A stretch of 64,000 bases of DNA from Lingula anatina (GCA_051362555.1 CM120646.1:12338001-12402000); one strand, 5' to 3'. Positions 9,019 to 60,322 are shown, counted from the first letter of the stretch. Numbers and translations are program-made. The notes: generated by a model not told the origin, from the sequence alone.

Positions 9019-9879
9019 GGCATAACATAACAAAGAATTCTGAAAATAAAGAAAACATATTTGCCTCACTTTACAGTAAATCTAGTCCATTATTTTCACA
9101 AATATTGTAATTATAGGAAACAGAACACTCTTCCAAGAAGTCAGGAGATAGAAAAAGGGAAGTAGCAAACACTAGTGTAGAAAGACTCTCAAAGGGACCA
9201 CAAAAATATCATGTGGATAAAATTCTTGCCCTCTATTAATATGCCGAAGACACAGGTTTTCCTAAATAAAACTATAAGAAATTATCTGACAAACTGATTA
9301 CTAAGTTGATAAAACATTCTATGAATCTCTGTTTTACAAAAAATGAAAATAAGGAAATGAATAAATTTTCATAACTTTATCAACCTTAGGTGACAGTTTC
9401 ACACAACCTTTAAGTAAGGAGTTACGACCGATAAAAAAACAGCAGCATTAGAATTTCATTTAGCAATGGCTATTTTTAGACATTACACAGGTTGCGGTGC
9501 CCCGTGTAGTAATATTCGAGCAGGAAATTAGGTCAGCGAGAAGCACGCATATTTCCGATAACGATGTATATAATTTATTTCATTAGCTGGGCCAGGCAAA
9601 GTAATTCGTGTATGCAAAGTCTTGATTATGATTTAAGCAGCATGGCATTTTAAAACCGCCCATTTCGAAGACATAGTTTTAGTGGCAGTACGTCCGAATG
9701 TGTCTTATGTACAGTCAAGACTCCAGCTGTTGGTATTCGACCTAAAAAACACGACACAAAGAACTTCCGTTTCGTAAAAGATTGCACCCTTTTTACACAA
9801 TGCTCATGATTGCATATAGTAATCAAACCATGCCCATGTACGTAAAAAAGATTTCCCCATTGATGTAAAGGTGAATCAA

Positions 9880-25600: not shown

Positions 25601-28600
25601 TCACAGGAACAACTGCATCTTCATCTGTATAAAAACCCCCATCGTGCATGGGCTCCACCACCTCTTGTGGTTCTTGCTCTGGGGAAGCAGATATCTGGAC
25701 TTTGCAAACTCGGTAATTCTTAATATTGTAACCTAGGTGTGGATGGCACTGCTGGAGATGTAGCAAGTGGAAGAACCTTGAATATGTGAGGTAGCCACAG
25801 TATTTGCAAACGAACATGTGCACCAGGATATGTTCCGTGAATGTCTCTTGGTCGGTTGTTTTGTAAGAGCAGAAGCTGCAGTAATAGTGTAGAATTTCAC
25901 TCGAGTTTTCATGGAGTTCTTCTGACACGAAACCACACACGTCAGACAATTCTTCATCTTTAGGATTACTCAGCTTTGTCCTATCAATAAACAGCAGATT
26001 TAAATGCAAACTCGAGTATGGTTCAGCAGTTGCAAACGGAACTGAACCTTGTGATTCCGATCCCTCTTGTTGAGATCTAGGCTCAAACCTGGGTTGGGAC
26101 ACTACAGATTTTGGGAGCATGTTTACCCTTCCTGTACTTTGCCAGGTTACGGGAGAAGTTCCTCCTCTATGGTGGCCAATAGCAACATGACCTGCTTTGC
26201 TGTGACTGGTTTCCATGGAAACCATGCTGTGGCTGGTTTCCATGACACCAGCATTACCAGTTGGCCATCGTTGTGGATGGTTTCCAATGGCAATGGGAGC
26301 CCACTTGGCCTGCCTGCTTGACACTGGTAAGAGATGATGAGTTAAGTCCGTAGTTACCCCTTGGGCTGTTTCCATGGCAACTGCACCTGGCCCTCTAATC
26401 TGTGGGGCAACTCTGGCACACTTTCCATCTAAGAAAAAAAGAAAATATAAAAATGAAAGAAACGTACTTCAAAATCTGTACGTAAAAATATTTTCTTTGT
26501 GTATGTTTCCTTATTAAATAGTATTGTACAATACATAACAAAAACCTGACATACCTAGTACGCACTTTTTGGTGCAATCTTTATCACATTGTGCTGCAAT
26601 AAACATTGTGTAGAACATCATCCACATGAAGAAAATTCTAACGTGATCTGATACAGGATATTCTGATATAATGCGTCTAATTGTTAACATTAAATGCACT
26701 GAAGATGTATTAGGAGTTCACAGACAAGGACATCATTAATCAGTGTTCTTGTCTCAATAAAAAGGCACACTAGTAGTTCACAGTATCTGTTTCGGGAAAA
26801 GGGATAGGTTTAAGCACAACCTGTAGGAAGTGAACATCCTGTTTCATACAGGAACGGAAACAAAACAACTACACAACTGAGTTTAAGAGAAATACTTTCA
26901 ATTAAAATCAACCATCCCATTTTTTAAGCCATCTGAAAGCTGTACAAGTCAAGGAACCCGGAAACCACAAATTAACCTAGTTAAAATCTAAGACATTTGG
27001 ATTTAAAACACTTACGGACTCCAACTATGCTATGATACAACAAAGAGTATTTGGGTCCTTAATACCTTTTTTCTTGAACCCATCAAATTATTTACTATAT
27101 TCTTCTTATCTTTTTCAGATATTCTAAGTTAATTCCGAATTTAAGAAATATAATTTTTTTTCAAATTTAATGTACCGACCAATGTATTTAACATTCAGCA
27201 TTTCCCTACCTACTTACATTGCATTATTCATCACAATCTCATTAGTGTCACGACAAGTTAAAATACAAAGATTTATTGTCACCTTTGGAGTGTGGCGCAT
27301 TCCTGACAAATCCTCCATCATGGTTACCAGACGCTGCCATATCATTATTTTCTTGAAAAGCCCCAGGTGGGATCTGCATCACACCTTTGGCTGCGTCTTG
27401 TCTTGGTTCAGATGTCCTGTTTACCCTGCTTAAACTATTATTATTACTTCCACTTCTATTATCTGCAATTGGCATCCCACTTGACGGAGTTGCACTAGCA
27501 CCAAGGTGGATAACTGGAGGACTTTCATTAAAAGCACCTTTATAACTGGGTTGCACGTGGACCTGGTTGCCCCTAGCAATAGTAGGGTTACCATGACAAT
27601 GGGTGGAGATATCCTGGTTGGTAGGTGTGACAAGGGGCGGAGCTACGTGGTTGCTTGGCGATGGCTTTTTCATACTGAGGTCCAGAGCTGCCTTGTCTGC
27701 CATGTCATCATCCTCTGTAACGAATTGGCCCAGGAAGACTGTCTGGGTCGGGTCAAAGGTCAGACTGCCCTGATCATGCTCTTCGTTTTGAGTTTTCATC
27801 TCCACCTCGGCTGAGTCTGAAAAAGTGGGTTTAACAACTTAAGAAACCATATGCCAGTTAAATTACCTAACCTGTTCTTCTCACATTCAACATTTCACCA
27901 TAATTCATTTTTGAAGGGTTATTCATTTTTGAAAGACTTGGCTTATTCCACACTCATAATTATCAATAATAATAATTTCATATTTCAAACCTATACCTTC
28001 AGTCAACTGTTCATCTTGACCATTCAAGAAGGAAGACTACCTAGGAGACCTACAAGATAAATCATACTAAACCCGTCTATGCAATAAGTTTATCCAATTT
28101 TAACTTCTCTAGATCTTTGCATAAAATTGTAATAATATCCAGGATTTAGCTAAAAACTATGTCAGCTACTTAAACGCAAAAATCTCATGCCTCAGCGCAT
28201 TACACTCTTCCATAAAGTAAACTCCATGCCAACCTGTAAATTTGACCTCCCCACCCCCAAACGGAGATTAAACAAACTTTGTTTCCAGGCAAAGCCGCTA
28301 AGCTGACTGAAGTTTAAATGCAAAAGAACAATTTTACCTTTATCAAGTTTATGAAACCCACTGATCTTTGCTGAACAAGACAAACATATCTCACTAAATT
28401 ACTAGTACTGTATGTACCTGAAATTTGCAGCCTCTAAAGCTAGCATTGCAAGGAATCTGGACTTTCCTCTGGCACTTTTCATTTTACATTAATTTACTTT
28501 GAGTGTTGTCCTAAACCACTGGTAAACAGTGTTTTTTGTCACTTTTGTATCCTTCATAAAAAGTGAATAACTCTGCTTCGAGTTATTTTTAGATTCTGGA

Positions 28601-36381: not shown

Positions 36382-37428
36382 GTGAGTAAAACTGATACTT
36401 AATATTTGATATTAATGAATTACAAAAGTATACTTATTTTGCTGTGTCTTTATTTCTGTGGGGTCGCGTTGACTTTCGCGTTCAGGGATGGGCATGTGGG
36501 AGGTCAACCACTTTTGTTTGTCGAGGGGCCACGTTTCGTTTCGTCCTTAAACTAGTTTCAGCATCCCGAATAGCACTGTAAACAGTTCATTGATATTGCG
36601 TGGGCTATTTTTGGTCACAGTTAGCTGAAAATCAATTTTCGATGATTGAATATGAGGCAAATTTTCTTATTGAAAAGGTCGGTGTTACGTGTGACAATGT
36701 TGTTCATATGGTGAATTATTTTCAGTCAGTTATTTTAGGGTATTTAGACCAATTATTTAAATGTTTATCAGTATTAGGGGTTTATCCACTTTTCTAAATT
36801 TATTTATATTTATTTAATTTTTTCAGCTACCCATTAAATGTATTTTACATAATTTTCTGGCAAAGCAGTATCAAATTTGACAGTTTAAAAAATCTGGCTA
36901 ATAGTATTTAGTTAAGCTTTATGTGATTATTCATTTATGAATATAAGCATTATTTTGTTACGTAAATTCATTGTGATCTTGACCTTTATTCTAAATTTAT
37001 CTAATACATGTCCTTGACCTATATTTTAAATTGGTCAATAAACATTTCAGATCAATTTTTATGTGTGCTATGTACAGCATTTTCTATGATTTTATAGTTG
37101 TAGTTGATATGTCCTTTAGTGCCAAAGTTGACATAAGATTGATTCATTAGTTTTGTGACCAGAGATTCAGTTTCTTTTTTCACTTTTAGATTTTATACAA
37201 TTGGTTTTAATGAAATTTACCAAGTAACTTCTTTATCAAACTAGCCACATTCTCTGCTTTAGGGGCAGTAGATTCATAGGCCCCTTTCACATCATGATGA
37301 TTACCTATCTATATGGCAACGTTATGACTGGTCCTTAGTTTCACAGTTGAGTCGAGTTTTCTTATAGATATCTGTTGGGACCAATCAAAATAAAGTTCTG
37401 TTGTGGTTTCAGACATTCAGTTTCACTT

Positions 37429-40400
37429 ATGGCCAGTAACAGAATGGAAACAGAAGATAAGGAGACTCAGTTTGAAGAAGATATGCAAATCAAAGAAGAG
37501 CCCCCTGATGACAGCGAGGAGGTAGACTATGCAGTGTCCAAGATGGATAACAAGGATGAAAGTCAAAGTGGTAAGATTGGGGTTTCAGTGAATCCAGTAT
37601 ATTTCAGTTCTTGGTGCTCTTTCAAGAAAAAGTAACTACTGTGTTGAACTCATTTTAGAATGTGGTGGAAATTCTAGCAAGAGACATACAGACAGACAGA
37701 TAGGGAGAAAGACAGATATACAGATGTGCACAGAAAAACGAGCCACTTCAACATAAATCGGTGGATTTTTTTTGTGATAGACCAAAATGTTGTATTATAT
37801 TCACAATTTCATTCGAGTGCCTTTCACCTTTTTCCATAGTTGTATATGTGCGCTCCATTCATTCCTTTGTATTTTGATAAGACAAGCATATAGATTACTG
37901 GCTACAACAAAAGGAAAACTGATATGATTGAATAGTTTCTGTATGCAAGTATCAATATATGGCAATTCTTCCTGTTTGCTCTAGATGAGGAAGGAGATGG
38001 GGAGCCTCAGATGCGCCTGTTGTTGCGCCCATGGCTGGAAGCCCAGATAGAAAGTGGTGAGATTCCTGGTCTCAACTGGATAGATAATGAGAGGACGCTG
38101 TTCCGAATACCCTGGAAACATGGTGCCAAGACTACCTTCACCGCCACAGATGGACTCATATTCAAAGTAATTTTTAATGTGATAGTGTGAAGAAAACTTT
38201 TTTTTAATGTGAAAAAATATTTTTTTATGATGAATTTAATAAGACTAACAGAAAAAAAATGTGTAAAAGAAAGATGGCATATTAAAGTAAACTTTCTGAT
38301 AAAATATTATAAAGGCGACTGCCTTCGGATCAGATTATCTATATTCAAGCAAGATGTGAAAATGTTTTCAACTGCAGATAGTAAGCAGTTGATGGTTGAC
38401 TTGAGCCATCTGGCAAAGACCTCATGAAGGGGACAGTCTTCATAGGAATTATTTAAAGGGATAATAACTCTTAGTATGAGATCTATATTTCACAATAAAA
38501 ACATTGTGAATAACTCATAGAAATATAATATATTCTGTTTTACCACAAATACGGCAGTTATAGCTATTATTCTGATGTCTGAGCTTGTCTGCGTACCACG
38601 TGACCTCCATTGATGGCTATACTCTGTTATAATCTCTTAAGAGATTTTAACAAAAAACCAAACTTTTTAGAAAAAAACCAGGGACTAACTTTGAATGTAA
38701 AAATGGATTCATTTACCATCGGTAAGTATGGGAAAATTGTTGTTTACTCCAGGAAAATTCATTTTTTGGCCGAAACGAAGAGTTATTATCCCTTTAATGA
38801 TAAACATTGTTAATCAGTGTAAATCCAGTGAAAGATAAATAAGATATATATTCATATATATATATATCAACTGTTAACTATCAACTGCTTATTAATCTTC
38901 ATGAATTGTCATTTCGTGATATTTTCAGAAATGGTCAATCCACACTGGAAGGTTCCATGATGGGGAGGACCCAAACTATGCCATGTTAAAGACCAGGCTG
39001 AGAATGGCCATTAATAAGGCACCAGATATTGAAGAAGTAAAAGAGCTGCGGAATAAGGAAGGCGACAGTCAGTTTAAAGCCTTCAGATTCCTGCCAAATC
39101 CAAAATGTGGTGAGTGTCGAGTGGTTATCCTGTGTGGTTTTTCATAACTTTTAAAATAGAATTTTATTTTATTATATTTTTTTCATGAAAAAGCAGTTTG
39201 TTTGATAGTTTTAGACTTGAGGAGGTAATTTAAACTTAGGCAAAATTTTGTATTGCCTTCTTTACTTGCCAGTGGGCAGTTCTGAGAAATGGTTAAATCT
39301 TACCATTTTCAGATTTATTGTGCCAAAGTCATTTTCATGAGTATCCGTTATAGCTGTCCAATCCCCATCCTTCCCCCATTTTATAAGTTTTCTCTAGAAA
39401 CATGAAAATTTGAATGACTTCTGTAGGGTACATCTTTTCTCCCCTTTTGGTCAGGGCTGGGTGATCAATCTGCCTTTTTATGATAGAATATGAAAGCAAA
39501 GGGGTGGGGGGTTGCTTTATGTTTCTGATGACGTTGATGATGATGATGGTGATGTATTTATCTTAAACATTGAAAATATCATAGTAATATAGCAGCAAAA
39601 TATTTACACCAAGCAATGCAATTGCCATTGCTTGAAGCTCAGTAAAAGACATCTCCAGGTTAAACTCCCTGTCTAATAAATAACACCAAATGAATTATCA
39701 TTTATGAACCATCAACTTTTTCGTGAAATTTCAATCACTATTTGATTGATGTTTGACTTAGGGCTAAAAAATGCATGCTGTCAGTTGACAAGGATCCCAT
39801 CTTAAAATAACCAGGGATATTGTTATTCAGGATATTAGTATTAAACTGTTTGGTACCATTCGAAAGAAAAAAAAAAAGGTTTCTTTGTTGGTTCCTGACT
39901 CCTGAACTTCTCTTGATTTATGATATCCAAGGCGTAATCAACCTTTTTCTATTAAGGTTTCTTCCAACAGGAAACATTTATACCGAAGGTTGGAGGTTGA
40001 CCCTTTTTTAATCTTCAGTGAGGGCATATTCAGTTTAAAAAAAGTGTTGGTCTAAACTGATCTTCTCTTATGATGGTGCTATCTTTGAGTCGGACAAGAA
40101 GTAGTGACGCTGTTGTGACTGCGCACGTAATTTTTTTGGCAGATGTATCCACAGCACTTTTATGACTTTTATGAGAGAAGAGTGAAGATGGGATCTTTAG
40201 TTAACTGCTGCAGGTGAGACGTGAAAGTCTGGGCTCACCATAGCATGTGAAATATTTTGCCGGTGGTTAAAGATAATATATTTTGGATTCTGAAAATTGG
40301 GAAAAACAGTTTGGCCAAAGTTGTGTCGATATGATGCATAATATCAAAAACAAGATTTCACTTGGCCAATATTAGAATTTAAAAGAGGAAGTATTTCATT

Positions 40401-43400
40401 AGACCACTTGATACCTTTGGGGTGTTTTAAAATAGATATTTTTATGAAGAGACATTTCTTTGCTTTTGCCAAGAGCAGATTTGGCTGAAATTCTTTAGCC
40501 TATTGGTTAAAAGTAAAATTATGCTAGGGTGAGTCCAGCTACAGTTCTCTTCAGTATTGTATACTATGTGGGATAGCCTGAAAACTTGTAGTTTTTGAAT
40601 AATTGAAATTTCTGTTTGCATAAATCATTACTTTAATGCATGCTGATGAACATATTTTTCAAGTGAGTTGCAGGATTGGTTTTCATTTGTCCATAATAAG
40701 AGGCAAAGGCAGGGTACTTTATTTTGAAGTTTGAAAAAAAATTATTTTCCTCTTTAAAGGCCGTTTTCTAAAACAGTGACAAGTCTTTGCAATGATTTTT
40801 GTTACCATTAGCCAGAAATTACTTTTGATCTTTGGACTGGTTTATTTCCTTTTACTTGCGTAAAAGTTTCTTATCAGCAATCACATCTTTTTGAGCATTA
40901 TGGATGAAAAATGGGAGTGGGTTAAGTAGTCAAAAGATTGTTTGGAATATGAACCTTTTTTTCTGATACAAGTGCTAGTTTGAATGCACATTTTGGGAAA
41001 ACTTGAATCCGTTACTAAAGCTTGTAGAGAAGTTTTAAGACTGCTTAAATATTCATGGCTATGTTATACAGCTGAACTTTTTGGGGCTATAACTAGGTTT
41101 AGAGCACCATTGTCTATCACCTTGAATAATAATGATAAAAGTGTAATAAAAAACAAAAAAAAAACAAATTTATCACATTGACCATTTACCATAATAGTAT
41201 CTTGTGCTGGTCTTTCTGTGAATTGTTAAAGAACTTGATGTGAATTTGTTTGCAGGTCAATCCCCATTCACCACCAAAACTTCAGTGTATATGCATTCTC
41301 CACCCAGTTATAACAAGAAGAAAAGAATATCTTCCAAAGACGTGAAGTATCAGCCCCCAGCCACTAGTAAGAGGTTTAAATCAGCAGGCAGTAATAAGCC
41401 AGGATCAGTATCGGTGTCAGGGATGTCTGGAATTGATACGCTCATAGCTGCTGCAGGTAAGGGTGAAGAAAAAAACGTGTAGGGGCATTAAAAATACACT
41501 GGTAAAGGTACTGAAAAATGACTTGTTAAGGTAGCAAAAAATATATACTCGTGAGGGTACTGTAAAATATACTCCTCTGATAGTTTACTCATTTTGTATT
41601 TAATAATACCACTGAAAGGTTTGATGAAACTTATCCAATCTTTTTTTTTTTATTCTTACCCTCCAGAATCGAATGTCACACTAGCAGCCTCCAGTTCCAG
41701 TGGTCATTTGTAAAAAAACTCAAGAGTTCCTTCAAAACGATAGGTCAATATATGGCAATAAAAAAAAAATAATAAAACAACAGAATGAAGATTTGATGAA
41801 ATTTTTTATGTTAACCTCATGGTTGTATGTGTATTCCAGGTGTAACAGCCAGTCAGATGAGTACAGAAGAGGACCACATTGGTGGACCTACGTCTAGTCC
41901 ACTTGATAGAGCCAGTCCTAACAATGACAAGTCTTTGCCTCAGCAACAGCTTCATGTGCCAAGTGTCCAGCAGCAATCCCTACAGGTGCCTGGTGTCCGT
42001 GTGCAAACACTGCAGGTGCCTGGTGTTCAGCAGCAGTCACAACAGGTGCCTGGCACCATGGTTCAACAGCCACAGGTGCCTGGTGTTCAGCAACAGCCAG
42101 CAGAGAAACCCGATACAGATACAGCATCACTGCTGCTCCAAGCCGCACAGTACACTTCCCATGTGTCAGTGGCATCGGCTGGTCATGTCCAAAGTCGACC
42201 AATTGTCCAGGTAGCCATGAGTGGTCAAACTGGAGGTCAGCAAACAAGGTTTCAGCTGCCCAGTGGAGAAATAGCCATAAGGATACCAGGAGATTCTTCC
42301 CAAGGTCAAGGTCACAGCCTGCCAGGCACATCAGACCCCCAGTTATACTTAGTTAACAATGCAGCGACATTACAGCAGACAGCAGCAGTAGCCGGCAACA
42401 GCACAATGTTTGTTAAGAGCCCTGCACTTAAACCGGGCACTACCCAGGGAACATTCACTGTTCCTTACCACAAATCATCAGCTGCAACTTCCTTGAGTAG
42501 TGCAGGTGTCAGTATGACCCCAACCACTGCTCATGTTAATGCACCCCTGACCACCCTCCCTTTAAACACCCCCATCCTAGGGAGCAGAGTCCCCAGTGGT
42601 GCACATACTGACCGTCCTGTAGTGGTCAGTCCGGCCAGTGTCCAAGGGGGTGATAAACAGGTGGTCAGTCAAACCAGTGTGTATCAAGTTAACAGAGCAG
42701 CAGGCGAGTCCTTTGTTTATGCCACCAGGCGGTCTTCAACTCAGTCTGCCCTGCAGAAAGCAATTCTCAGGAAACAGAGGGCCAACGAGACTGTGGAATA
42801 TGGGGCTCAGCCGACAAAGCAGCGGAAGCAGTCTGAAGGGAAGGGGACGGAATATGTTGTTTCTCAAGGTTCAAAATCTGCAAGACACCTAGAAGGACAA
42901 GGAGCCCCAGTTTCTGCTAAGTCTGCTATGAGAGACAATGCAGTCACTTCTCCCACAGAGAAAAATGGCTTTGTTTCTACCTCTTCAGTCAAATCCAAGT
43001 CCAAATCCTCTGACAATTGCGGCTTTACGGAGATATGCGACATGTCAACGCAGACGGAGATGACGGGAGAAGCATTAGAGGCCATACTTTTGGAACATGC
43101 TCAGTTAAAATGCAGATTTGCAGACACAGACAAGTTACGCAGGGAGTTATTCTTAGAACATGTCCTGTCGTCTGATAAAAACATAAAACGCTACACAGGA
43201 CTGCCCACACGAAAGATTCTAGATGGAGTTTTTGATATTTTGGACACACCAGATGTAAGAAAAAGATACTGGAATGAAAGTCAATTGTATCCAGTGGAAA
43301 GTCCAGTGAAAAATGCAGAATGCCAGACACCTGTGGCTCCATCTAAAAAGGAAAATCAGCCAGTGAACTTGGTACAACAATCAGGGCTGACCAATCAGGC

Positions 43401-44400
43401 TGAAGCTGTGCCTCCCCTGGTGACCTCTGGTGGGGAACCTGGTATAGAATCCACAGGGAATCAGAGAGGAAAACGAAAGAGAAAGGTTCCCCAAAAGCAT
43501 GTACCATCATCTCTGGTGAACAATGTCAATAGTGTAATGACTGGTGATTTACCCGGTAGTACTGTGCCACAATATCATGTCAACACCAAGGCCACAAAAC
43601 CAACCTCAGATTGGCCAATTCTCAGTAACTATGAACAGTTCTTATTGGCAATTATAAGGTTTCGGCTTGGTCTCGTGGCGTTTATGATAGGCGATCTGTT
43701 TGGGATTTCAGATCAGCAATCCTCTCGGACTTTTTCTACGTGGGTAGTGTACATGTACAAGGTGATGGGACCGTTACTCAAATGGCCATCACGACAACAA
43801 ATTCAGCGTTTCTTACCTGAGGCTTTCAAGGAGATTAACCCTCAAACCCGGGCTGTGATTGACAGCACAGATTTAGTGTTTGAGGGACCCCAAAGACCTA
43901 AAAAGAAAAAAGGGGGAAAATACCTCGATAAAGTGAATTACACACCAAACACCAAACTGAAGGCTTTATTAGCAACAACTCCATCAGGAGCATTCACTTT
44001 TGTGTCACAACTATGGGACAAAAAAGTATCAAATGCGCACATGGTCCAACAGAGCGGTCTGTTGGACTTGATCGAGCCAGATGACAACATAATGGGCAGT
44101 CATGATTTCCCGGTGGATGCGCTCATGGAGAGCAAAAAGGCAACAATGTCAAGGCCTCATATACGCCTCAAGACCAACAAGTCTTACAGGTGGAGGGCAG
44201 GAAAATCGCTGTCCCATAAGGAGATCATAAAGAATCGTAAAGTCAGCCAGCTTCAGACTGTCACAAAAAAGGCACTGCAGAGGTTGAAAGGTTACAGGAT
44301 GTTGCGTCACGTGATTCCCAGGAAGTTGAAGGATATCTCCCATGAGATGTTGGTGTTGGGAGCAGTCCTGTCCAACTTTTCGCCTCCTATTGTGAAATGA
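37429..44400 (+). CDS. IRF DNA-binding domain fused to a Harbinger-superfamily (ISL2EU-like) transposase-derived domain, 1088 aa; exons 37429-37570, 37985-38166, 38929-39109, 41256-41456, 41840-44400
   Basis: IRF DBD: RLLLRPWLEAQIESGEIPGLNWIDNERTLFRIPWKHGAK...IFK|KWSIHTGRFHDGEDPNYAMLKTRLRMAINKAPDIEEV...FKAFRF. The last exon has SDKNIKRYTGLP, the HTH_Tnp_4-like LSNYEQFLLAIIRFRLGL...DLFGIS...SRTFSTW, and the DDE_Tnp_4-like TRAVIDSTDL...LKALLATTPSGAFTFVSQLW...SGLLDLIEPDD. All introns are GT-AG with phases 1,0,1,1 (3267 nt). AATAAA at 44659. Confidence 0.85.
37985..39109 (+). CDS. IRF (interferon regulatory factor) DNA-binding domain exons (37985-38166, 38929-39109)
   Basis: Tryptophan-repeat IRF signature PWL, GLxW, FRIPWKH, FKKW; recognition helix KTRLRMAINK. 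Confidence 0.93.
38457..38793 (+). mobile_element. TTAA-flanked MITE (Kolobok-like), copy 2, in the intron that splits the IRF domain
   Basis: TTAA|AGGGATAATAACTC...GAGTTATTATCCCT|TTAA with perfect TIR and TSD. Confidence 0.85.
43150..44400 (+). other. Transposase-derived domain (HTH_Tnp_4 + DDE_Tnp_4, PIF/Harbinger-ISL2EU group), apparently catalytically dead
   Basis: Motif order matches THAP-associated DDE_Tnp_4 transposases. The first catalytic Asp is kept (IDSTD, 43861). The ADRGF motif reads GSHDF and the HVER motif reads VTKK. Confidence 0.85.
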
Positions 44401-47400
44401 TCAACCAATTTTTACATTCATAGTTATGTCTTTGTTATCAAATTTCACCCACGAATTTATGAGATTTGGGTGTAAGGAGAGTCTTAATTCAACTTCTTTA
44501 TACCTTTTGTCCAACATTTGCCCTTTGACTTGCTTCCTTTTTTTTCTTCCTTTTTACTAAGGTCAAAATAATATCATTCTTCAAAAATGGAAATGGAGTG
44601 AAGCCAGACATGTCTTATACAGATTGAAATGGTAGACATAAGCAACCTTCCTGTCACAAATAAAATAACATGCAGTACATATATCAAAATGCACTTGAGA
44701 TTGAACTGTAATAATTTGCAGTTCAAGCTGTTAATTTATTTGAAAGTCAATTTTTTATACTTGCATTTACTGTAATTTATATACTATACAATATGGTCAG
44801 TTTAAATGGTTAAGTTGTATCATATATACATTTGGTTGCATTGTTGAAAGATTTGCATAGATTTTCATTTTTACCACTAAAAATTCTGAATAGATGTCTC
44901 CTTAACAAAAGGGTTGTAAAGGTAGTGCAGATCTAGCTCAAGCAAAGTCTGATATTTTTCATATTGATACAATTATTGGAGTATAATGTAAGAGATGATG
45001 CAAAATTCTATTGAACACGCTGTATTTTCAGCCCATTATTGTAAGCTCATTATACCCGGACTTCACTTTTCAGTTCCTCAGTAACTAACCTTAAGTGGCT
45101 GCATTTTCTAGACCCATTTTTACCTTTGCCATAGCCAGTCTTTTAAGTTATACATTAAATCTTTTTTTTTTTTTTGACTCACTTGTTTTGTTTCTTAGTA
45201 TAAGGAACCTTGGAAAGGTCCAAATTACATCAGTAATATATGTTAAACATAGCAGGTTCAAATGGTATTATGATCATTGGTCAATTTTATTTTAATATGA
45301 CCCCCCCCCTCCCCCCACAACCTCCTTTACCTTCAGTTTGAAAGTAGTTTATTGTTAGATTAAAACATAATGAAATATAGGGCACATTTTTCATTTTACT
45401 CTATATGGACAATGTTTGTCAGATTCATTAATATAGAGAAATTCATCCATTATATTGGGAATTAAAAGTTAAAGAACATTTCAAACATGTTTTGGGATGT
45501 GGAGAAATTTTATCCATTTAATTTAAGTTTGAAGAATATTTCGCTCCTTGCTATGAAGTGTGAAGAAACTTAACCCATTTTATGCAAATTATTTCAGCCT
45601 TTGTTATATTTGTCATTTTCATATAGGCACATTGCCATAGTTTAGACAGTCTGTCAATGATTCATTTATAGTAAGTTGTGAAGAACATCCGCCAACCACT
45701 GAGGAAAATTGCCTTTTGAAAACTTGAAAAATGAAAGGAATATAATATCGACTTTAAGGTATGGTAAGATGTGGTGATAAAATGATAGTGCAAGACATAA
45801 TCGAAGAAATTGAAAGGAGCTTTAATTTGAAGCACCTGTAGAAGTGTGCTGTAATAGTGTTATGTGCTTCTTTGGCATACATAATGGAAAGATAAGAGAA
45901 TTGATGATAAAGATGCAAGAGTGGCAAATGTAAGTAAAATGAAGCATGAAGTCATATTTTTTAAGAGGTGTGAGTATAGATCTGCCAAAATATTAAAAAT
46001 TAATTTTTTTTATTTGATTATTATTTTTTTAAAATACATAGATGTCAACTTTTGTTTTTGAAACAATGAACTTGACTATTTGATCTAAACATCTGTTATG
46101 TTGCCATTTTATTCAGGAATAGGCCAGTAAGAAAGAGAACTATTATGCCAGTACATTTATATTGAAATAGGCTTTATATAAATATATACATGTATTTATG
46201 CAGGGAGTAGTTAGAAACATGTTTATCTTAGAGAAATCTTGACTGTGTGATTCCCAGAAAATATCTCCAGATATATATATAAAATAATGATTACTCATAA
46301 TATTGTAAAGAAGTACAAAAAGCAATATGGATTTCAACAAAGAATATTCTAAATGAATGAAAATGACAATTAATTGTAGTATGGACCTTGGTATCTGTAA
46401 AATTATATACACAATAGATTGAAAAAGAATGGTGATTTACTTCATAGTCAAGTATATTGTATTTGAAACAGTCAGGATTGCATATTAACCAGGTACAATA
46501 ATCTATAATGGAAAGATTGTCTGTTATAATGAGGATTTTCATTGCTATTTTTATTTATTTATTTATTTATTTGATTGTGTTATACTGCTATGCAAAGAAT
46601 TGGGCTTGATCATAGCCAAGTCTTAAAGACAACTTAGGACCATCTTTTTCATTTCCACATTTTCATGGATAATTCTTGCTGTGCATATGGAGATTTGAAA
46701 ATGAAGAAGTTGCCAACTATTGGGACTAAACCTCAGGAGAGCTTAATAGTAGATACTATTAGGTAGTGTTTTTGTCCTGATTGTTAATTTGTATAATTAG
46801 AAAATGGATATCAGCTGTCTGTGTCAGCACTGAAGACAAAGTAACAAATTTTCACTCAATTGATCAATTGTGGATAAATAAAGACGAAAGCACCTGTAAG
46901 GTAGATGATGTACATATTAAATATTAAGTAAATTGTATTGGTAGATGATTATATATATAGAGAGGAGTGATTCCTCATATTATTTGTATATAGAGAGGCA
47001 TTGTGTGTATATAGTTTGGGCTATTTGTGTTAAGAACATTGTTTTCATAGTTATTGAATGGCATTTGTGTTGATGAAGTCTGCTTTAGTTCCCCACCCCT
47101 GTATTAATGTATTGTAATGGATTGAGAGATCATAATGTATGGGGCTATTTACAAACATTTCTTGGATTTTGGATATCACCAAATCATTGTTGTCTGGATT
47201 ACAGATTCATAATGTAATCCAGTGAACAGCTTTCAATAATCGAGGCATCACAAATGATCCTTTTAAAATTATGATAGGGGGCGTCTCCCAGCTCTTAGTG
47301 TTGGGCCATGATACACGTTTGATCACAGAATGTTTGAGCAAAACAAATGCTTAGGCTGCTAAGAAGTGTTATTAATATTGTGATGTGGATACTACTTGGA

Positions 47401-47838
47401 ACAATTGTAAAATTGGAAATGCGTTCTTTTGTTTGTAACATGGCCACTGTGACAGTTATTGTAATTACTGGATTTTTTCAATGGGCAAATGTTATTAAAC
47501 TTTCAGATACATAATTTTGTAATCAAAATATATTTCTATATGGCATTGGCGGTGCTTTTACTGCATGGAATAGAACCGTAGTGTAACCTGCTTATTAATT
47601 TTGTTGCTACCACTCAAGGGATGTTTTTATTTTTAGAAATTATGACTAAAAAATACAGTATCTATAAAATTTGAAATTTTTCCCCATTGAAAAGATTGAA
47701 TAATTATCCTAGTTCAGGTTCCCTGAAGAAGTCTGTGTGTGTGTGTTTTGTCCAGTTAGGGGTTTGATTTTTTCATTCTTTTATTATGTACAGACACAGA
47801 TGTGTCTGTACATATAGCCGTCACCTGCGTCTGTCGTC

Positions 47839-47869
<31 letters not shown>

Positions 47870-47881
47870 GCGTGCACTTTT

Positions 47882-48347
47882 ACCGTAAACACGATAAGTG
47901 GAAAACAGTTTTACGTTTTGACTTGAAACTTACAGAACTGATGAATATTCATAATATTCAGGTCAAGTTCGAAAATCAGCATGATCGGGCCATTTTTAGG
48001 GAAGTTATGCTGTTTTTTCACATTTTTCAGCATATATGCAACACCGTAAACATGATAAGTGGAAAACCGTTTTACCTTTTGGTTTGAAACTTACAGAACT
48101 GATGAATTTGTATAATACACAGGTCAAGTTCGAAAATCAGCATGATCGGGTCATTTTTAGGGAAGTTTTGCTTTTTTTCACATTTTTCAGCATATATGCA
48201 ACACCGTAAACACGATAAGTGGAAAACGGTTTTACCTTTTGGTTTGAAACTTACAGAACTGATGAATATTTATAATACACAGGTCAAGTTCGAAAATCAG
48301 CATGATTGGGTCATTTTTAGGGAAGTTATGCTTTTTTTTCACATTTT
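47882..48347 (+). repeat. Tandem repeat, ~160-bp unit, ~3 copies
   Basis: accgtaaac recurs at 47882, 48043 and 48203 with high identity between units. Confidence 0.9.
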
Positions 48348-48747
48348 CTCTGATTCAATTCTTAGGCATGTTAATAGTCTCATTATTGAACTAATAAGAT
48401 ATGTAAAAGAGTTTTTTTACATTTCCTGCATCTTTACAACATTTTTAGTTGATTATGTAAAAATGATGGTAAACTTGTTACCGGTATTGTGTAATGAAGT
48501 GTCAAAAATGGAAATAAACACATATCATTGCAGTTTGTCAGATTCAATCATCCACTATGTTCAGAATCTCAGAATGGAGGAAATTGGACATTTAATACTG
48601 TTCTATTGATATTTTTCCCATCTCATCAATTTTCTTAGTTGGTCATATAAAAATTGCAGTAAACTGTTAATTTTGTTTTAAGTTAAAAAAGTGTTAAAAA
48701 TGGAAATAAACCCATTTCAGAAAAGTGCTGTCTTGTTTACATTTTGA

Positions 48748-50260
48748 CATTTTCAAGATGTGACTTTGAAGTTCCATGGTCCTGAAGACCTTTGCTAGTC
48801 ACATTTTCGGAATATCCATGATACTACTATTTTATTATTAATAATTGATGGTCATTATGCTGTTAAACATTATGTAATATTGCATCAAAATTTGAAGAAA
48901 CCCCTATTTTAGGCACTGCTCCCATGATGACCATTTAAGGAAAATCATGTCACTTACTGTTCTCAAACTTACAGGAAAGAAACATGGGACTAAAATACAG
49001 CTTCAGTAGGCAATGCATTCTGTTTGGTAATTTTTTCTGGCAGTTAAACAGTTTTTTGTGAAAATTTAATTTTTCACATATTGGCATTTTCAAGGTGTGA
49101 CTTTGAAGTTCTATGATCCTGAAGACCTTTGCTAGTCACATTTTCGGAATATCCATGATACTACTATTTTATTATTAATAATTGATGGTCATTATGCTGT
49201 TAAACATCATGTAATGTTACACTAAAATTTGAAGAAACCCCTACTTTGGGCACTGCTCCCATGATGAGCACTTAAGGAAAATCATGTCACTTACTGTTCT
49301 CAAACTTACAGGAAAGAAACATGGGACTAAAATACAGCTTCAGTAGGAAATGTAGTCTGTTTGGTAAATTTTTCTGGCAATTAAACAGTTTTTTGTGAAA
49401 ATTTCATTTTTCACATATTGGCATTTTCAAGGTGTGACTTAGAACCTCCACGGGCTTGAAGACCCATGCTAGTCACATTTTCTGAAGATCCATAATACGT
49501 ATATTTTATTATTAAAAATTGATGGTCATTATGCTGTTAAGCATTATGTAATGTTGCATCAAAATAGAAGAAAACACAATTTTTGGTGCTGCTGCCATGA
49601 TGACCATTATGGGAAAACCGTCTTACTTATGACTGTCAAACTTTCAAAAAAGAAACACAGGACTAAAATGCAGCCTGAGTTGGAAAAGCAGTCTAATTGG
49701 CTTCTTTTTCTGGAAGTTATACACTTTAGTGAAAAATTCATTATTATCGTGTTGGCATATTCATTGTGGGACTCAGACCTCCCATGGACATGAAGCCGAA
49801 TGGTAATCAAATTTTCTAAATGCCCATGCTATTTATAGTCAATAATCAAAAATTGGTGATAATTATTTTATAATTTATTATGTAATGTTACATCAAAATT
49901 GACAAAAATCTTTTTGCACTGCTACTGCAAACATTATGAAAAGAAAACTGTGTTACTTATTATTATTTTTAACTTACAAGTATGATTTTTAGGATTGGCA
50001 TGCAGTTCAAATTAGAAAGCCAGCTCAATTGGGTTATCTTTTATCATTGAATTCATGCTATTTTGTGTGAAATTTTCATTTTTCTCATTCTGGCACTTTT
50101 AAAGTATAAACTTGAACTCTGATGGGCCTGAAGCCTTATGCTTTTACTTTCGTTGGTGTTACCTGTTGTGCATAATTAAAATTTGATGTTGACTGTGCAG
50201 TTAAACATAATGTATTATTGCATCAGAATTGGTAGTCTCCTATTTTGTGCATTATTGTTA
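48748..50260 (+). repeat. Tandem repeat, ~337-bp unit: three conserved copies plus about two degenerate copies
   Basis: cattttcaag.tgtgactt recurs at 48748, 49085 and 49422; weaker copies near 49755 and 50093. Confidence 0.85.
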
Positions 50261-50498
50261 TGTGCTTTTCTTAAGATGTGACTTATGGGCCTGAAAGATC
50301 TTTGAGAAGGTCAGTCTGTAAATTTCCCTTGGGTATCACTTAGCTAAGTTATAAAATCATTTGCCTAATTAATAGGCCATTAAATGAGATTACATAAAGC
50401 ACACTTGTTGATATTTCCCTGTAAACTGCCAAAGGTTAAGCTCTCTGCTAGATAAATAATAAGGAAGCAGTGATAATTATACAGGTAAATTATGCAGG

Positions 50499-50811: not shown

Positions 50812-51671
50812 TGTTATGTTTCCTTTATAATTTTTTCTCAAACACTGCATTTGTGACTTTTAACTCTCATCCACCTGAGACTCTGCACATTTTCTGTATT
50901 TCCACATAAGCAGTTGTTTTTTATGTCTTTAAATAAACATAATAATGTAATAAAATGTAATATTATTTTATGCACTATCATCATTTTTCAAATATTGAGA
51001 CTTTCATCATGTGACTTTGGTCTCTCATGGTCCTGAAACTGTAATCTTATTTAAGGGGTGGATTGAGACCATCTTCTCAGTCCTCCGGAAGACAGTGAGG
51101 TTATTAAGTTTATATTGACTGGTATCTTTTTTTCTATTGGAAGACCATCAAAATGGAGGATGGATCAACATAGATACTTTGGAATACTGTCAGAAAATAT
51201 CTCAGGGTCCGCTCCTGTTATTGACCATGTTACCTGTTGTGCATGATTAAAATTCAATGTTGACTGATAGTGCTATAATAAGCATTATTTATTTTTGCAT
51301 CAAAATTGACAAAATGACCTTTTTTGCATCTTTATTTTCTGTTTTTTGTCTGTACATTTGACAGCTTTGCTGCCTTGTTCTTTGACACTACAACTGGAGA
51401 AATCAATCTATACATTTCAACGTCTTTGTGATAATTTACTGAAGTTGATGTTTTATACACAGTTGCAGCTAGTCTTTTCTATTGCATTTGTCTTACGTTG
51501 CTACCTCAAATGTTCATTATAAATGATACCAACCCTCACACACTGATAAATTTCAGAAAGTGAAATTGCACAGCAGGTTGCAATGTGAAGATCATGGTTC
51601 ATTAGGTCATTTACCGGACCTAAACTTCAGGATCATTGATCATGGCTTTAATAAAGAATTAATGAAGTTAA

Positions 51672-52009
51672 AGGGATAACAACTGTTCATTTTGGCCATA
51701 AAATGAATTTTCCTGGGGTAAAAAGCAGTTTTCCCATACTTACCAATGGTTAATGAATCCATTTCTACATTCAAAGTTAGTTCTTGGTTTTTTTCTAAAA
51801 AGTTTTTTTTTTTTCTGTAATAATCTCTTAAGGGATTATTATAGAGTATAGCCATCTATGGAGGTCACATGGTCAGATGGCAAGCACAGATTTCAGATGT
51901 ATTGCTGTAACTGCTGTGGTAAAATAGAATAATTTATATTATATTTCTGTGAGTTGTTCACAATGTATTAATTGTGAAATGTAGATCCCTACGAAGAGTT
52001 GTTATCCCT
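51672..52009 (-). mobile_element. TTAA-flanked MITE (Kolobok-like), copy 3
   Basis: TTAA|AGGGATAACAACT...AGTTGTTATCCCT|TTAA. Homologous to the copies at 11702 and 38457. Confidence 0.85.
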
Positions 52010-53975
52010 TTAAATTTTATGACATATTTGAACATGTTTTCTCTGGCTGTTTCATTTCCACCGTCAGGAAGAAATTCTTAGCATGTTGGCACAGCTTTTG
52101 CAGTGTTTGAGATGTTATATTGCTCAATACTATATTTTTCAGGATTCATGAATTATGGGCATTAAACTGTTGGCTCAGGTATTAACAGCTATTAACTGTA
52201 TTCTGCGGCAGAAACTTAGAAATCAGTTTGTGGTTAGTGTGGATGTTGTTCCCTGCTAAAGCAACAAAAGGATGTTGATTTTCTTTTCATATTCTATTGT
52301 AAACCAGATTTCATGGAAGTTTTTTAAAAAGTTTGCTGGAGCATAAAACTTCATTTAAATTTGATTGTTATTATCTAGACCCCTGACTTTGTTTGAGATG
52401 CTAAGATTTAGAGTTAGGATTGACACATTTAAGCATATGTTATTATTTTTGTTGCACTGGTATATTTTGTATTCAATATTATATTCTGTAGATAGATGTC
52501 AATAAGATTTATATTACTGCGTATGGATGCAAGGGTCAAACTTTATTAATTTTCGTTCATTTTCAGTAACCGGGATATATATATATATATGATGATAAAG
52601 AATATTCTTTTCTGTAGTGAATAAGAAGGCTACAGTTTGATTATGATGATAGATGAGAATTCGGAGGTGTATATAGTAAAATAACAAAAAATGAGTATGA
52701 CATAAAATAGAATATTTTGCAGCTTCCCTGTAAAAGGGATATTTCAGGTTGCCAATGTTATTGACATGGTGTATCTAGGATATGAGGCAAGGGGCTCATT
52801 CTTCTTCCCCCCCCCCCCCTTCCCATCAACAGGGGCAGATTCTTCTATTTAGAATTTGAAGAGGTGGAGGGGGTTCGGTGCTCAGCTGAATGCATCTTTG
52901 ATGCATTTTTGTGATGATTTACCAATAGTACCCCCAAGTTTTAACAAAATAAGTTGAGACTGAAAATTGGTCTTGATTTTTTTAGCCAAAATTTAGTTCC
53001 ACTTCATTTCTGGTTAAATCGTAGTTATTATTTAACACAAAGTAGCTGTTGGACTGTAGTGTCAGCTATGTCTTGACCATTATTTAACAGACACAATATT
53101 TCATATAAGTAGACTTGGTTTTGTCTAAATGTTGAGACCAACTTTTGGTGTGAACTTTACTTTGCAAAACAGGCCTCAGATAATCAAAATTGGTAATGGA
53201 ATATGTGGTCAGTATGGACACATTAGTATGGCATTGGCAACTGGTAAAATGAGTAGAATATTTAAGGTAAAAGAAATTCTTTGTTATAATTTTGAAGGCC
53301 AGTAAATTTATTGTTGTTTATTGTTATTCTTGTTGGTAATAATTTTGGGTTGCACTTGTGAGAGTTGATATTGAAATATGACTAGAGTTCGTAAATTCTT
53401 TGCAGAGATCATGTAACAGTTGATACCGTATGGAAATAAATCACAGAGTTGCTGAATGAAATTTATTGTCTTGTTAATTCTGATTTTTCTGGCAGAATAT
53501 TGTCATCTTTTCTTTTGGGGTCAATTTTTAAAAAGCTGTTGTGTAATTATTCAATTTCCTACTATTCAAAAGTGTAAAAAGGGGAAAAAGGGTTTAAAAT
53601 AATAATGAAAATAATATGAATAAAAGTGAAACACTTGAAACACAACATTTAGATTATTTAATAAATAAATTAAAACTGTCTACGAATTTCAAAACCCCAG
53701 TTATTCTAAATGTTGTATTTATTGTTTTTTATTGCAAAGAAGAAGGTTACTCATTATTCAGAATTGCCTAAGCAAAGAGAGAAAAAGGGAATGGCCGGAC
53801 TTGGAAAGCCTGAGGATTATCGAAAGTCCTTTGAACTAATCTAAGCAGGGTTTACAAATGGAAATAGATGGTCCCAGAAAAGTAATATTTTGTGATGAAG
53901 GCTGAAGATAAAAGTATGCTTGACTTACAGAGATTCAACTGAACCCAGCACAAATCAGAGTATTTTTACTTTCAG

Positions 53976-56900
53976 GGAGGGGGCAATCAAGTGGACATGT
54001 AAGCACCAGTGAAGAGGAGGAAGATGACTGCAAACTTGATGTGTTGGAGCAAAGGTTCCCCCTGCTGGAGCCAAAGTCTGAAAAGACGGAAGGAGGCTGT
54101 GGATTGCTGGAACAAACCTCCCCCTTACTGGTGCCAAAATCTGAGACCAGCAGTCTGCTCAACACCGAGTGTTGTGATGAAATGAGTCTACATCAGCCAG
54201 CACTGTTGGCAGAAAATGGTAGTGGCAGTAATGGCGACAACCAGGAGAAATCAATAATAACCCTCGCTGTAAACCAGGTTCCAGTGACTTCAACTTATTT
54301 AAGTGAAGAAACAATGGGTGATAAACGTCAGAGGACTGATGAATCTAAAAGTGAAAATTTGATGAAAAGCTTTTGCCCTAGTTTCATGAAGCCACAGTCT
54401 GTAGATGTTCCAAAAGTAGCACATTCTCCAGGCCTGCCCATTTCTGACATACCTAAAACTGTTGAAAGTGAGACTGATATGCAACAATCACAAGATGACA
54501 GTGATCAAAAGTCAAACACACTGAAGAGAAAACCAGAGACCAAAGAAATGAATTGTCAAAGTACTGAGATGACTGTAAGCTCAAAAATATTCCCAAGTAA
54601 TCTTCAAAGAAAAAACAGGACTCTATATTCATTTTTGACGACAGAGGATGACCCTAAAGAAGATAGAAGGCCTCGCATATTGAGAAAGAAGCCAAAGATA
54701 TATGTGATCCTGCATCAAAAAACTGCATTGAAACCAGATTCAATATCTCAGCCAGTGCAGTCACTATTAGTGGACAATAATTCTCCAGTCACAGTACAGG
54801 CAGTTTCAAATGATGATACCAGTTCATCTGTGGCAGCACAGGCAATTCCAGTTAGTTGTTCCAAACATGATGATGTTGGATCTGTTGAAGGGAATATGAA
54901 AATGAACAACAGTGAAACCTCACAGTCAGAGGTGACCTCAGCAGTATCGCATAACGAAATCACAAGAAGAATTAAGAAAATACTAACAGCAAAAAATGAC
55001 AAAACCAAGCTATACTTGATTTCAGACAGTGACAGTGATTTAACAAAATATGAAGTTAAAGACCCACAGATGAAAATATTGAACAGGTTCAAACCAACCA
55101 CAACTATCACAAGGGACCACAGTGGCCCAGAGCCTGATCAAACCAATCCACAGCATTTCACTTATGTAAAGAGAAATATAGAGCCCGTAAAGGACATTGG
55201 CTTTCAGCTCATGGACCAACTCCAAACTGATACAAACACCCTTGCACCTAGCAAATGCATGTCCAGACATGTCAGTCAAAGTAGAGAAGGCATCTTTCCT
55301 GAAAACAAGGAAAGCATTTCCACAGTGCAGAGGGAGGGCAGTGTAGATAAGCCAGCTCAGGAAACCCAAGGTGCTGATAAACCGGAACAGGAATCACAAG
55401 ATGTTGCAAAGTCTGAGCAGTTGGTAACCTGGAAGGCTGTGAAACAGACTACACCTTCAGGGAACAATGTAGCAGTATTGACTAAGGTTGCTTCAAGCAA
55501 CATACCCAACCAGCCGGTGCCGGTCTTACTCATACGCAATTTGCATCAGAAAGACACCCTGCCACCATCCTTCTTGACATCCACGGAGCAAACAAACCAG
55601 ACAGACACCTCCCCATTGCAAGTTTCTTTAACTGATCCCTCCAAAGATGAACCACTGCCTTTGGTGATCAGTGATGTTCGAAGCCTCTCAGGGGAAGGTC
55701 AAAAACAAGGTGTTTTGTCAAAGAGTAATCCAACAAAGGAAGAAAAGGTACTTCCAAAACATGGCCACAGTGGTGACTTAAGTGAGGCTGGAATGAAAAC
55801 AAAACCAGCAGTTTCAAGTTCTGCAACGGCTCCAAGTTTTTTAGTGCATGCAGTCAGAACAGGTGGAACTATGTCAGTTGTGAAAATTATTCCAACTACC
55901 AAAAGTGTAGTGCAATCAGCGTTTTCATGTGTTCAAAATAAAGTGGAAAATCCACCAAAGATTTGGAGTAGGGCACATCCAAGAAAAGCCAAGGAGAAGG
56001 CCATAGTTAAAATACATGAGGAAGCTCAAACTAACATAAATGAAGATTCTGGAGATGATGGATCTGAAGTAAGAGATAAGGTGAGATGGTCTAAGAGTTA
56101 GTTGTTGTTGCTATTCTTCTTTTCTGCTCATATTTTATTGTCCCTTATGATTGTTAGTCTTTTTTCCCCAGCAAAAATAACTAGGGTCTCGGGAGAGAGC
56201 TTTCAAATTTTAACGTAACTATTCAAAAAAGTTGCCCATTCATAAATACATGATTATTATATGTAGTTTTTTATATTAGAATTTAAAAATGTATATTTCA
56301 ATGACTTATGGTGACATTTATAAACTAATATTTGCTGAATAATGGTCCTTCTCACCCCCAGCCCATGCACACTGCTATAAACACTTTCATTAATTAGATG
56401 TGAACTATGTACATCACTAGTGTATGTCCTTGTAGTGTGGACAAATTCTGTGTAACTTGATTCAAACACAAATGGCTGTATGTAGGCAATTATGATGTCT
56501 TTACCTTCTTGTTTTAGTTGTTGGGCAAATTGGACAAGTCAGTACAATTTCCAGAGGATTCTGATGATTGCAGTCTTGTCAGCAAGGGTGACAGTAACAT
56601 TCATGGTCAAGGTCAGAGCACTTACTTTACCAAGGAAGGCAATGCTCTGGCAGGTAAATTACTGAAATCTGAAAAGCAACTCAAATATATAGGCACCCGC
56701 AATTTTTTTAAAGCAATGGATTCGGGGAATTCTTACCTGTTTTGTGAAATATGCGGTCGCCTCTTGACTACAACTTATAGGCATCGTTATGCACACAGAA
56801 GATTTCCAGAAATTTGCTTGTGGATTTTGGCTCCAAAGACTTGCCGCCCAGAACATAAATTTCAAATGTGTTGCTGTGGCAAGAAAAGTATTAAAATGGG

Positions 56901-59900: not shown

Positions 59901-60322
59901 CATCATTTTCTTTTTCATGAAATCAAATTGTTTGGGGTAAAGGAGCAGTTCAATTTGTTTTTAAAGAGTTTAAATGTGGTCAAGTAAGTCATGTGACCAA
60001 GGCAGTCATATAATCAAAGTCCTTTGAAGGATTGGATCCTCATGAAAAAAAAAGTACCTCTTAAGGAATGGTTTACTTTTTTTACATCTATAAACATGAC
60101 AATTTTTCAATAAAAAGATTTATAATTTAATTCACCATTGTTTATTTTTGTTTAGGAATGCGCATGCACTTCCAGACAGACCACAAAGGCCAGGAGTGGC
60201 TGGTCTTCGGCTGCTTAAGGTCCAATGATAAACACCAAACTTTGTATGTGTGCCCATCAATCAATTGCCCCACTATCAAGCCATCCAAAGAAGAGCTGTT
60301 AAAACACGAGGCAAGTCATTAG
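53976..60322 (+). CDS. Multi-zinc-finger protein exon block (53976-56080, 56518-59377, 59754-59861, 60156-60322); 5' exons unresolved
   Basis: Long open exons with GT-AG boundaries. Entry is phase 1 and the introns are phases 0,1,1. Repeated CxxC-x12-H-x4-H fingers are each followed by a C-x4-C module. The last exon ends in a complete C-x4-C-x12-H-x3-H finger (CPSINC...HEASH*). Confidence 0.8.

Follow-up and report, generated by a model that had tools for sequence, protein, structure and literature searches.

The joining of host coding exons to a transposase is a known route to new genes, with 94 events and 55 host domains counted in tetrapods, and young fusion genes often retain both transcripts (bioRxiv 10.1101/2020.05.07.082677). 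In CSB-PGBD3 the transposase forms an alternative last exon whose triad is altered, which provides a precedent for exon capture; the triads read DND in PGBD3 and DDN in SETMAR (PMC2268245). In these tetrapod fusions, as in the KRAB-transposases, the transposase typically serves as the DNA-binding domain (DBD) and the host supplies the effector, such as KRAB or SET. Arabidopsis ALP1, a Harbinger nuclease that lost two triad residues and joins PRC2, offers a precedent for such a fold acting as a module (PMC4671723). Transposases of the ISL2EU type, members of the PHIS superfamily, are marked by a THAP, helix-turn-helix (HTH) and DDE order together with a YqaJ partner (PMC4482050, PMC9179366).

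Here we describe a gene in a 64,000-nucleotide stretch of Lingula anatina DNA (GCA_051362555.1 CM120646.1:12338001-12402000), referred to as the window, with positions counted from its first letter. The gene is a spliced, transcribed chimera of an interferon regulatory factor (IRF) DBD and an ISL2EU-type transposase, as a preliminary description of the window had proposed; sequence and RNA reads agree, and transcripts connect the exons. As in SETMAR, CSB-PGBD3 and the KRAB-transposases, host exons are spliced in frame to a separate terminal transposase exon, and the triad is altered, as it is in PGBD3 and SETMAR. Unlike in those fusions, the host supplies the DBD, from an IRF, and the transposon, its THAP domain lost, supplies an HTH and a fold predicted to be dead.

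Exon structure and transcription

The gene lies on the plus strand at 37429-44400 in five exons, and all of its introns are GT-AG. Coding exon 1 (37429..37570) carries the ATG and an acidic N-terminal tail (amino acids (aa) 1-47) and ends in a phase-1 donor. The first half of the IRF DBD, with W64, W79, W91 and H93, is encoded by exon 2 (37985..38166), which has a phase-0 donor after IFK; the second half, with the recognition helix KTRLRMAINK, is encoded by exon 3 (38929..39109), which has a phase-1 donor. Exon 4 (41256..41456) encodes a basic Ser/Thr/Pro-rich linker (aa 170-236) whose lysine cluster is a possible nuclear signal. The 5' part of exon 5 (41840..43014) continues as a Q/S/T/P-rich linker of low complexity (aa 237-627) with 30-nt QVPG repeats and no THAP, and about 460 low-complexity residues separate the IRF DBD from the transposase. 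The middle of exon 5 (43015..43857) encodes the transposase helical region and HTH_Tnp_4 (43633-43770), with a disordered stretch inside at about 43279-43617, and its end (43858..44400) encodes the RNase H-like DDE_Tnp_4 domain and the stop. The 3' untranslated region (UTR; 44401..45000) has an AATAAA at 44659 and read coverage up to 45000, the edge of the mapped interval. The joined coding sequence (CDS) of 3267 nt encodes 1088 aa and a stop, which recovers the coordinates proposed earlier, and near the edges of exons 2 and 3 (within a few bases) no other GT-AG combination exists.

RNA reads from four of nine runs with the same species label, from three studies and comprising 6-30% of each run, were mapped to 36500-45000. 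Junction 37570>37985 was crossed by 16 reads in three of the four runs (5, 5, 0 and 6 per run) and junction 38166>38929 by 22 reads in all four (9, 2, 4 and 7). The two joints that link the IRF exons to exon 5, both singled out for checking in the preliminary description, 39109>41256 (2, 0, 3 and 1 reads) and 41456>41840 (3, 0, 1 and 2 reads), were each present in three of the four runs with 6 reads apiece. All four junctions sit exactly at the modelled exon edges, and both stranded runs place the RNA on the plus strand. Read coverage of exon 5 and the 3' UTR is thin, and no splice joint falls within exon 5 among the joints listed from the mapped reads.

The IRF exons and the transposase exon

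Both halves of the IRF DBD match Pfam PF00605 above its curated cut-off of 27 bits: exon 2 over profile positions 2-49 (E 3.2e-16, 60 bits) and exon 3 over positions 50-104 (E 1.9e-10, 41.4 bits), together 2-104 of 105. IRF structures in the PDB were also matched, and the N-terminal IRF DBD of the preliminary description is thereby borne out. Five tryptophans make up the conserved IRF tryptophan cluster. The DBD keeps W64, W79, W91, W110, H93 and R133, with 57% identity over 105 aa to P0187, an IRF with an IRF association domain (IAD). The C-terminal IAD (PF10401) that IRFs of the IRF4 branch carry is missing, as noted earlier: the family has no match on the exon 5 open reading frame (ORF), and tblastn with P0187 matched the two DBD exons only in the window. 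A word-based protein search, which is a weak one, returned a single IRF protein with an IAD for exon 2 and nothing for exon 3.

The window's gene and the IRF loci L001, L003 and L005 have in common a phase-0 intron after IFK and a phase-1 donor directly past the DBD, and at L003 an IAD lies downstream of the DBD exons. Vertebrate IRF4/5/8 introns also start with phase 0, followed by phase 1 (PMC2885996). As the intron pattern is common to IAD-type IRF loci, the IRF exons of the window are host exons, and they likely derive from the IAD-bearing branch among those described in PMC3308963. The same pattern suggests that the transposase exon likely took the place of the IAD. No transposase frame was found at any of seven IRF loci, within 2.7-20 kb of DNA each. 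The window protein resembles IAD-bearing invertebrate IRFs (P0187, L001, L003, L005) in DBD similarity, DBD intron position and phase-1 donor, and differs from them in having no IAD, an acidic 58-aa leader, and the changes Trp>Phe99, Trp>Leu128 and Cys>Met134. The earlier proposal that the IRF domain stands where THAP would be is correct in a loose sense; however, the long linker lies between IRF and transposase, and the exon pattern points to the IAD slot instead.

Two further observations concern IRF loci. At L003 (10171-10599) the DBD intron appears with a GC donor (GCAAGT), where L001, L004 and L005 have GT donors. In the window, TTTCACTT occurs at 37178-37185 and again at 37421-37428, immediately 5' of the ATG. 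We take this motif to be the reverse of an IRF-element half site, and autoregulation through these sites is possible, as is a chance occurrence.

On exon 5, a Pfam profile search places the two domains claimed earlier, HTH_Tnp_4 (E 2e-7) and DDE_Tnp_4 (E 1.1e-17, profile 1-158 of 158), and the exon 5 ORF has no further Pfam family, THAP and IAD included, at E<=0.1. Searching 1.84 billion representative proteins gave 3757 matches at E<=0.001, and the best 150 were examined. The closest relative, P0003 (XP_070548516.1 from Ptychodera flava), is a THAP-HTH-DDE transposase with 42% identity, and none of the best 150 of the 3757 matches has an IRF domain. Of these 150, 110 were scanned for domains at E<=0.001 (two with their best five families only) and 40 at E<=1e-8; THAP is present in 44 of the 110 by manual count, and YqaJ in 2 of the 150 (P0085 and P0147). 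Judged by the domains of its relatives, the transposase part is of the ISL2EU type rather than a classical Harbinger, a refinement of the Harbinger/ISL2EU-type label first applied to it. The weak word-based search with the exon 5 region returned two THAP transposases, and an Atlas search with exon 5 returned generic DDE_Tnp_4 clusters.

The window protein was aligned with 105 relatives, fragments left out. Its catalytic triad reads D-S-K against the usual D-D-E: D910 (43861) is kept, and Asp>Ser989 (44098) and Glu>Lys1045 (44266) are changes at positions with Asp in 99% of 105 relatives and Glu in 96% of 103. E913 and D967 are likewise changed. Of 44 conserved columns the protein retains 27, fewer than any other of the 106 rows; the losses cluster at the active site, and most structural Gly, Pro and aromatic positions survive. 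From this pattern the transposase is predicted to be catalytically dead. With two of the three cutting residues lost, the product is likely a gene regulator from a tamed transposon. ALP1, likewise retained as a host protein, belongs to the same superfamily by its fold and has also lost two triad residues (its triad reads DGA, that of the window DSK), but it is a stand-alone, PRC2-associated protein from a classical Harbinger with no transcription-factor domain fused to it (PMC4671723).

The model built by AlphaFold from the alignment with the 105 relatives has a mean predicted local distance difference test (pLDDT) score of 78.7, with 257 of 461 residues at or above 90 and the core above 90; it was used in place of a single-sequence prediction, unusable at pLDDT 40.8. 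Integrases and transposases are the best structural matches (Z 10.2, root-mean-square deviation (rmsd) 4.1, 132 residues aligned), and Tn5 scores Z 9.8 (rmsd 6.0, 234 aligned). Foldseek returned no match at E<=0.001, with transposases and integrases in its top rows. The DDE domain has a net charge of +19 versus +4.3 +/- 5.6 in 102 relatives, of which 2 are as high. The RNase H-like core is accordingly modelled, and so predicted, to be well folded with an unusually basic surface.

The transposase shares the HTH_Tnp_4 and DDE_Tnp_4 core of ISL2EU elements (PMC4482050, PMC9179366), but it lacks other features of theirs. There is no THAP (neither PF05485 nor a CxxHF motif), and no YqaJ partner frame was detected in the window by tblastn with the YqaJ part of P0085. 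Terminal inverted repeats (TIRs), which in ISL2EU elements come with an AT target duplication, are also missing, as first reported: no inverted repeat of at least 14 nt joins 41457-43100 to 44401-48000, shorter ones being A/T runs, and none of the 25 longest of 348 repeat pairs surrounds exon 5. A disordered stretch interrupts the helical region and, through an in-frame insert, exceeds that of relatives by about 90 aa; the coding sequence is divided into five exons. A multicopy insertion with TIRs, which would have undone the preliminary description, finds no counterpart in the window, where the transposase is single and lacks TIRs.

These losses bear on two other explanations of the locus. 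A recent, intact ISL2EU insertion acting as a neutral exon trap would account for the one large terminal exon, as exon traps have, and for a CpG depletion milder over the transposase (0.49) than over the remaining coding exons (0.17-0.43). This explanation is largely refuted and very improbable given the missing TIRs, THAP and YqaJ frame, the two lost catalytic residues, the 90-aa insert and the longest branch in the tree; moreover, the read depth of exon 5 is low, unlike that of a multicopy element in intron 2. It is scarcely credible that the locus is a still-transposing element with an IRF domain captured in place of THAP. The order of DNA-binding domain, HTH and DDE does resemble that of THAP-HTH-DDE transposases, but the triad is broken, the IRF introns are of host type, and neither ends nor a second copy exist in the 64 kb.

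Divergence, selection and proposed function

The window protein has the longest branch in a quick tree of the relatives, at 1.72 amino-acid changes per column, and a branch of 1.1 in a careful tree of 37 rows (the window and 36 relatives hand-picked from the quick tree). The careful tree pairs it with P0003 at 94/76, which is not firm support, and P0003 is also nearest by tree path. A neutral simulation of 500 runs left the transposase frame uninterrupted in 0.6% of them at 0.1 substitutions per site; at 0.2, every run lost it. Among the variants in the RNA reads, of which 40 of 169 rows picked by read support were considered and 24 lie in the coding frame, the IRF exons have 9 synonymous and 0 non-synonymous changes, exon 4 has 2 and 0, and the transposase part 8 and 5. 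The ratio of non-synonymous to synonymous polymorphism (pN/pS) of the transposase part is 0.18, rising to 0.21-0.26 when transition bias is allowed for (p 0.003-0.015; 13 sites in one species). The sole coding indel listed, found in reads of two runs, is an in-frame 3-nt insertion in the 5' part of exon 5, and the frame-breaking indels listed lie outside the CDS. An open frame on so long a branch together with the synonymous lean favours selection on the exon, and we regard a real, selected fusion gene as very probable.

The gene may have arisen when an ISL2EU element inserted 3' of the DBD exons in an IAD-type IRF paralogue and, by way of a phase-1 acceptor, was captured as the last exon of the gene. 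The captured element would then have lost THAP, its ends and catalysis, and would have been retained since by selection. Under this scenario, the IRF domain would bring the protein to DNA, the HTH and the basic dead nuclease fold would occupy the IAD slot and bind chromatin, DNA or partners, and the Q/S/T/P linker would be a regulatory or activation region. The product is probably a nuclear regulator whose IRF domain binds DNA and whose dead transposase fold serves, in place of the IAD, as a module for binding chromatin or partners.

Several observations weigh against a selected fusion of this kind. No read or contig bridges IRF to DDE; the two are connected by a series of junction reads, each 150 nt long, and by the uninterrupted exon 5, and at that read length no single molecule reaches from one domain to the other. 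Reads across the third and fourth junctions total 12, against 38 across the first and second (p 0.0003 for equal expected counts), and run X4 has neither of them, so the fusion transcript may be of minor abundance or restricted to certain tissues. The estimate of selection comes from 13 sites out of the support-filtered 40 of 169 variant rows. An orthologue of the transposase was not found among the 1.84 billion representatives, where the best match has 42% identity, and a scan of metagenome contigs with the transposase gave nothing. Finally, Trp>Leu128, the loss of a conserved Trp, and, in the recognition helix, Cys>Met134 set the DBD apart from IRF1 and P0187. As these changes alter the recognition helix, DNA specificity may have shifted, and binding to the classical IRF element may be shifted or weakened.

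The same product could have come about in another order, if a free-standing transposase gene with a long disordered N-terminus was domesticated before its fusion to an IRF paralogue. The linker shares an exon with the transposase and nothing in relatives matches it, exon 5 has a Met at aa 243, and a THAP-less relative with a long N-terminus, P0073, exists in a sea slug. However, trees do not place P0073 together with the window protein, and a stand-alone orthologue was not found among the representative proteins, leaving this order of events unlikely. P0073 itself (GFO29226.1 from Plakobranchus ocellatus), an ISL2EU-type protein of 798 aa with a long low-complexity N-terminus and an altered C-terminal catalytic motif, is perhaps an independent domestication.

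Zinc-finger exons, neighbouring features and wider meaning

Downstream of the fusion gene, large plus-strand exons at 53924-56101, 56518-59388 and 60157-60322 encode atypical C2H2 zinc fingers, with no obvious start exon; an Atlas search with this region gave generic C2H2 clusters below the recognition level. The next plus-strand coding exon after the fusion gene has a phase-1 acceptor at 53976 that fits the donors of exons 3 and 4, and reads open through 68 codons ahead of its first Met. As the acceptor phase fits the IRF donors, the IRF gene may use the zinc-finger exons as an alternative 3' end. With the fall in junction reads past exon 3, they could form a second tail for the IRF head, in the way that young fusion genes often retain both transcripts; it is equally possible that they belong to a distinct gene whose first exon was missed.

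This arrangement allows the main product of the gene to be another IRF isoform, running from the DBD to the zinc-finger exons or ending early, with the transposase form a functionless minor by-product. The third and fourth junctions have about one third of the reads of the first two and none in X4, and no convincing start exon was seen on the way to the phase-1 acceptor at 53976 with its 68 open codons. Yet an unselected exon would not hold an 853-codon frame over such divergence, the read variants lean synonymous, and in runs X7 and X9 the depth of exon 5 is about equal to that of the IRF exons, all of which makes a mere by-product improbable. A more tentative extension of the selected fusion, which we consider possible although doubtful, is that one IRF head is shared by two interchangeable tails, the dead ISL2EU transposase and a zinc-finger protein, with the IAD discarded. 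The transposase isoform would then be an IRF-targeted chromatin regulator that reverses the usual host-transposase design.

Other features of the window lie around these genes. A miniature element of about 345 bp, with 23-nt terminal inverted repeats starting TTAAAGGG, is present in intron 2 (38453-38797) and in an inverted copy at 51665-52016. The RNA depth over the intron 2 element runs into the hundreds, with loose ends on both sides, and therefore many copies exist elsewhere. Its TTAA ends and AG/GG termini presumably place it close to Kolobok-type elements. Two tandem arrays separate the fusion gene from the zinc-finger exons, at 47852-48332 (about 160 bp, three copies) and 48715-50300 (about 337 bp, at least five diverging copies). 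Head to head with the IRF gene are minus-strand exons at 6331-9081, 19663-20781, 23112-26468 and 27248-27838, of which the first carries DUF4819. We take DUF4819 to be the N-terminal domain of long capicua, and it would serve as a synteny anchor.

The preliminary description did not recognise the architecture as described, and we found no report of an IRF-transposase fusion in searches of open-access full-text literature, nor one among the best 150 relatives. In the main text of bioRxiv 10.1101/2020.05.07.082677, as far as it was available, IRF, interferon and Harbinger have 0 occurrences, and the available part of PMC9710019 has no passage on fusion or IRF. PMC10027918, which surveys transcription factors of transposon origin throughout the animals, does not mention IRF in its text, and its supplements hold 'IRF' only as a letter string within one protein sequence. 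The pairing of IRF and ISL2EU is a real, expressed and apparently undescribed variant of the known host-transposase route, found in one species.

So far transposase capture has been documented chiefly in tetrapods, and there the DBD usually comes from the transposon. The design here appears to be reversed, with an immune-family DBD retained from the host and a dead ISL2EU nuclease fold in what is likely the IAD position. If the two-tail arrangement is true, the transposase isoform would represent a novel route by which an invertebrate rewires its IRF pathway. If the fusion protein is made and conserved, IRF architecture would extend beyond a DBD plus an IAD or tail, ISL2EU would join the sources of captured exons, and the gene would provide a test case for the role of a catalytically dead Harbinger-like fold in animals.

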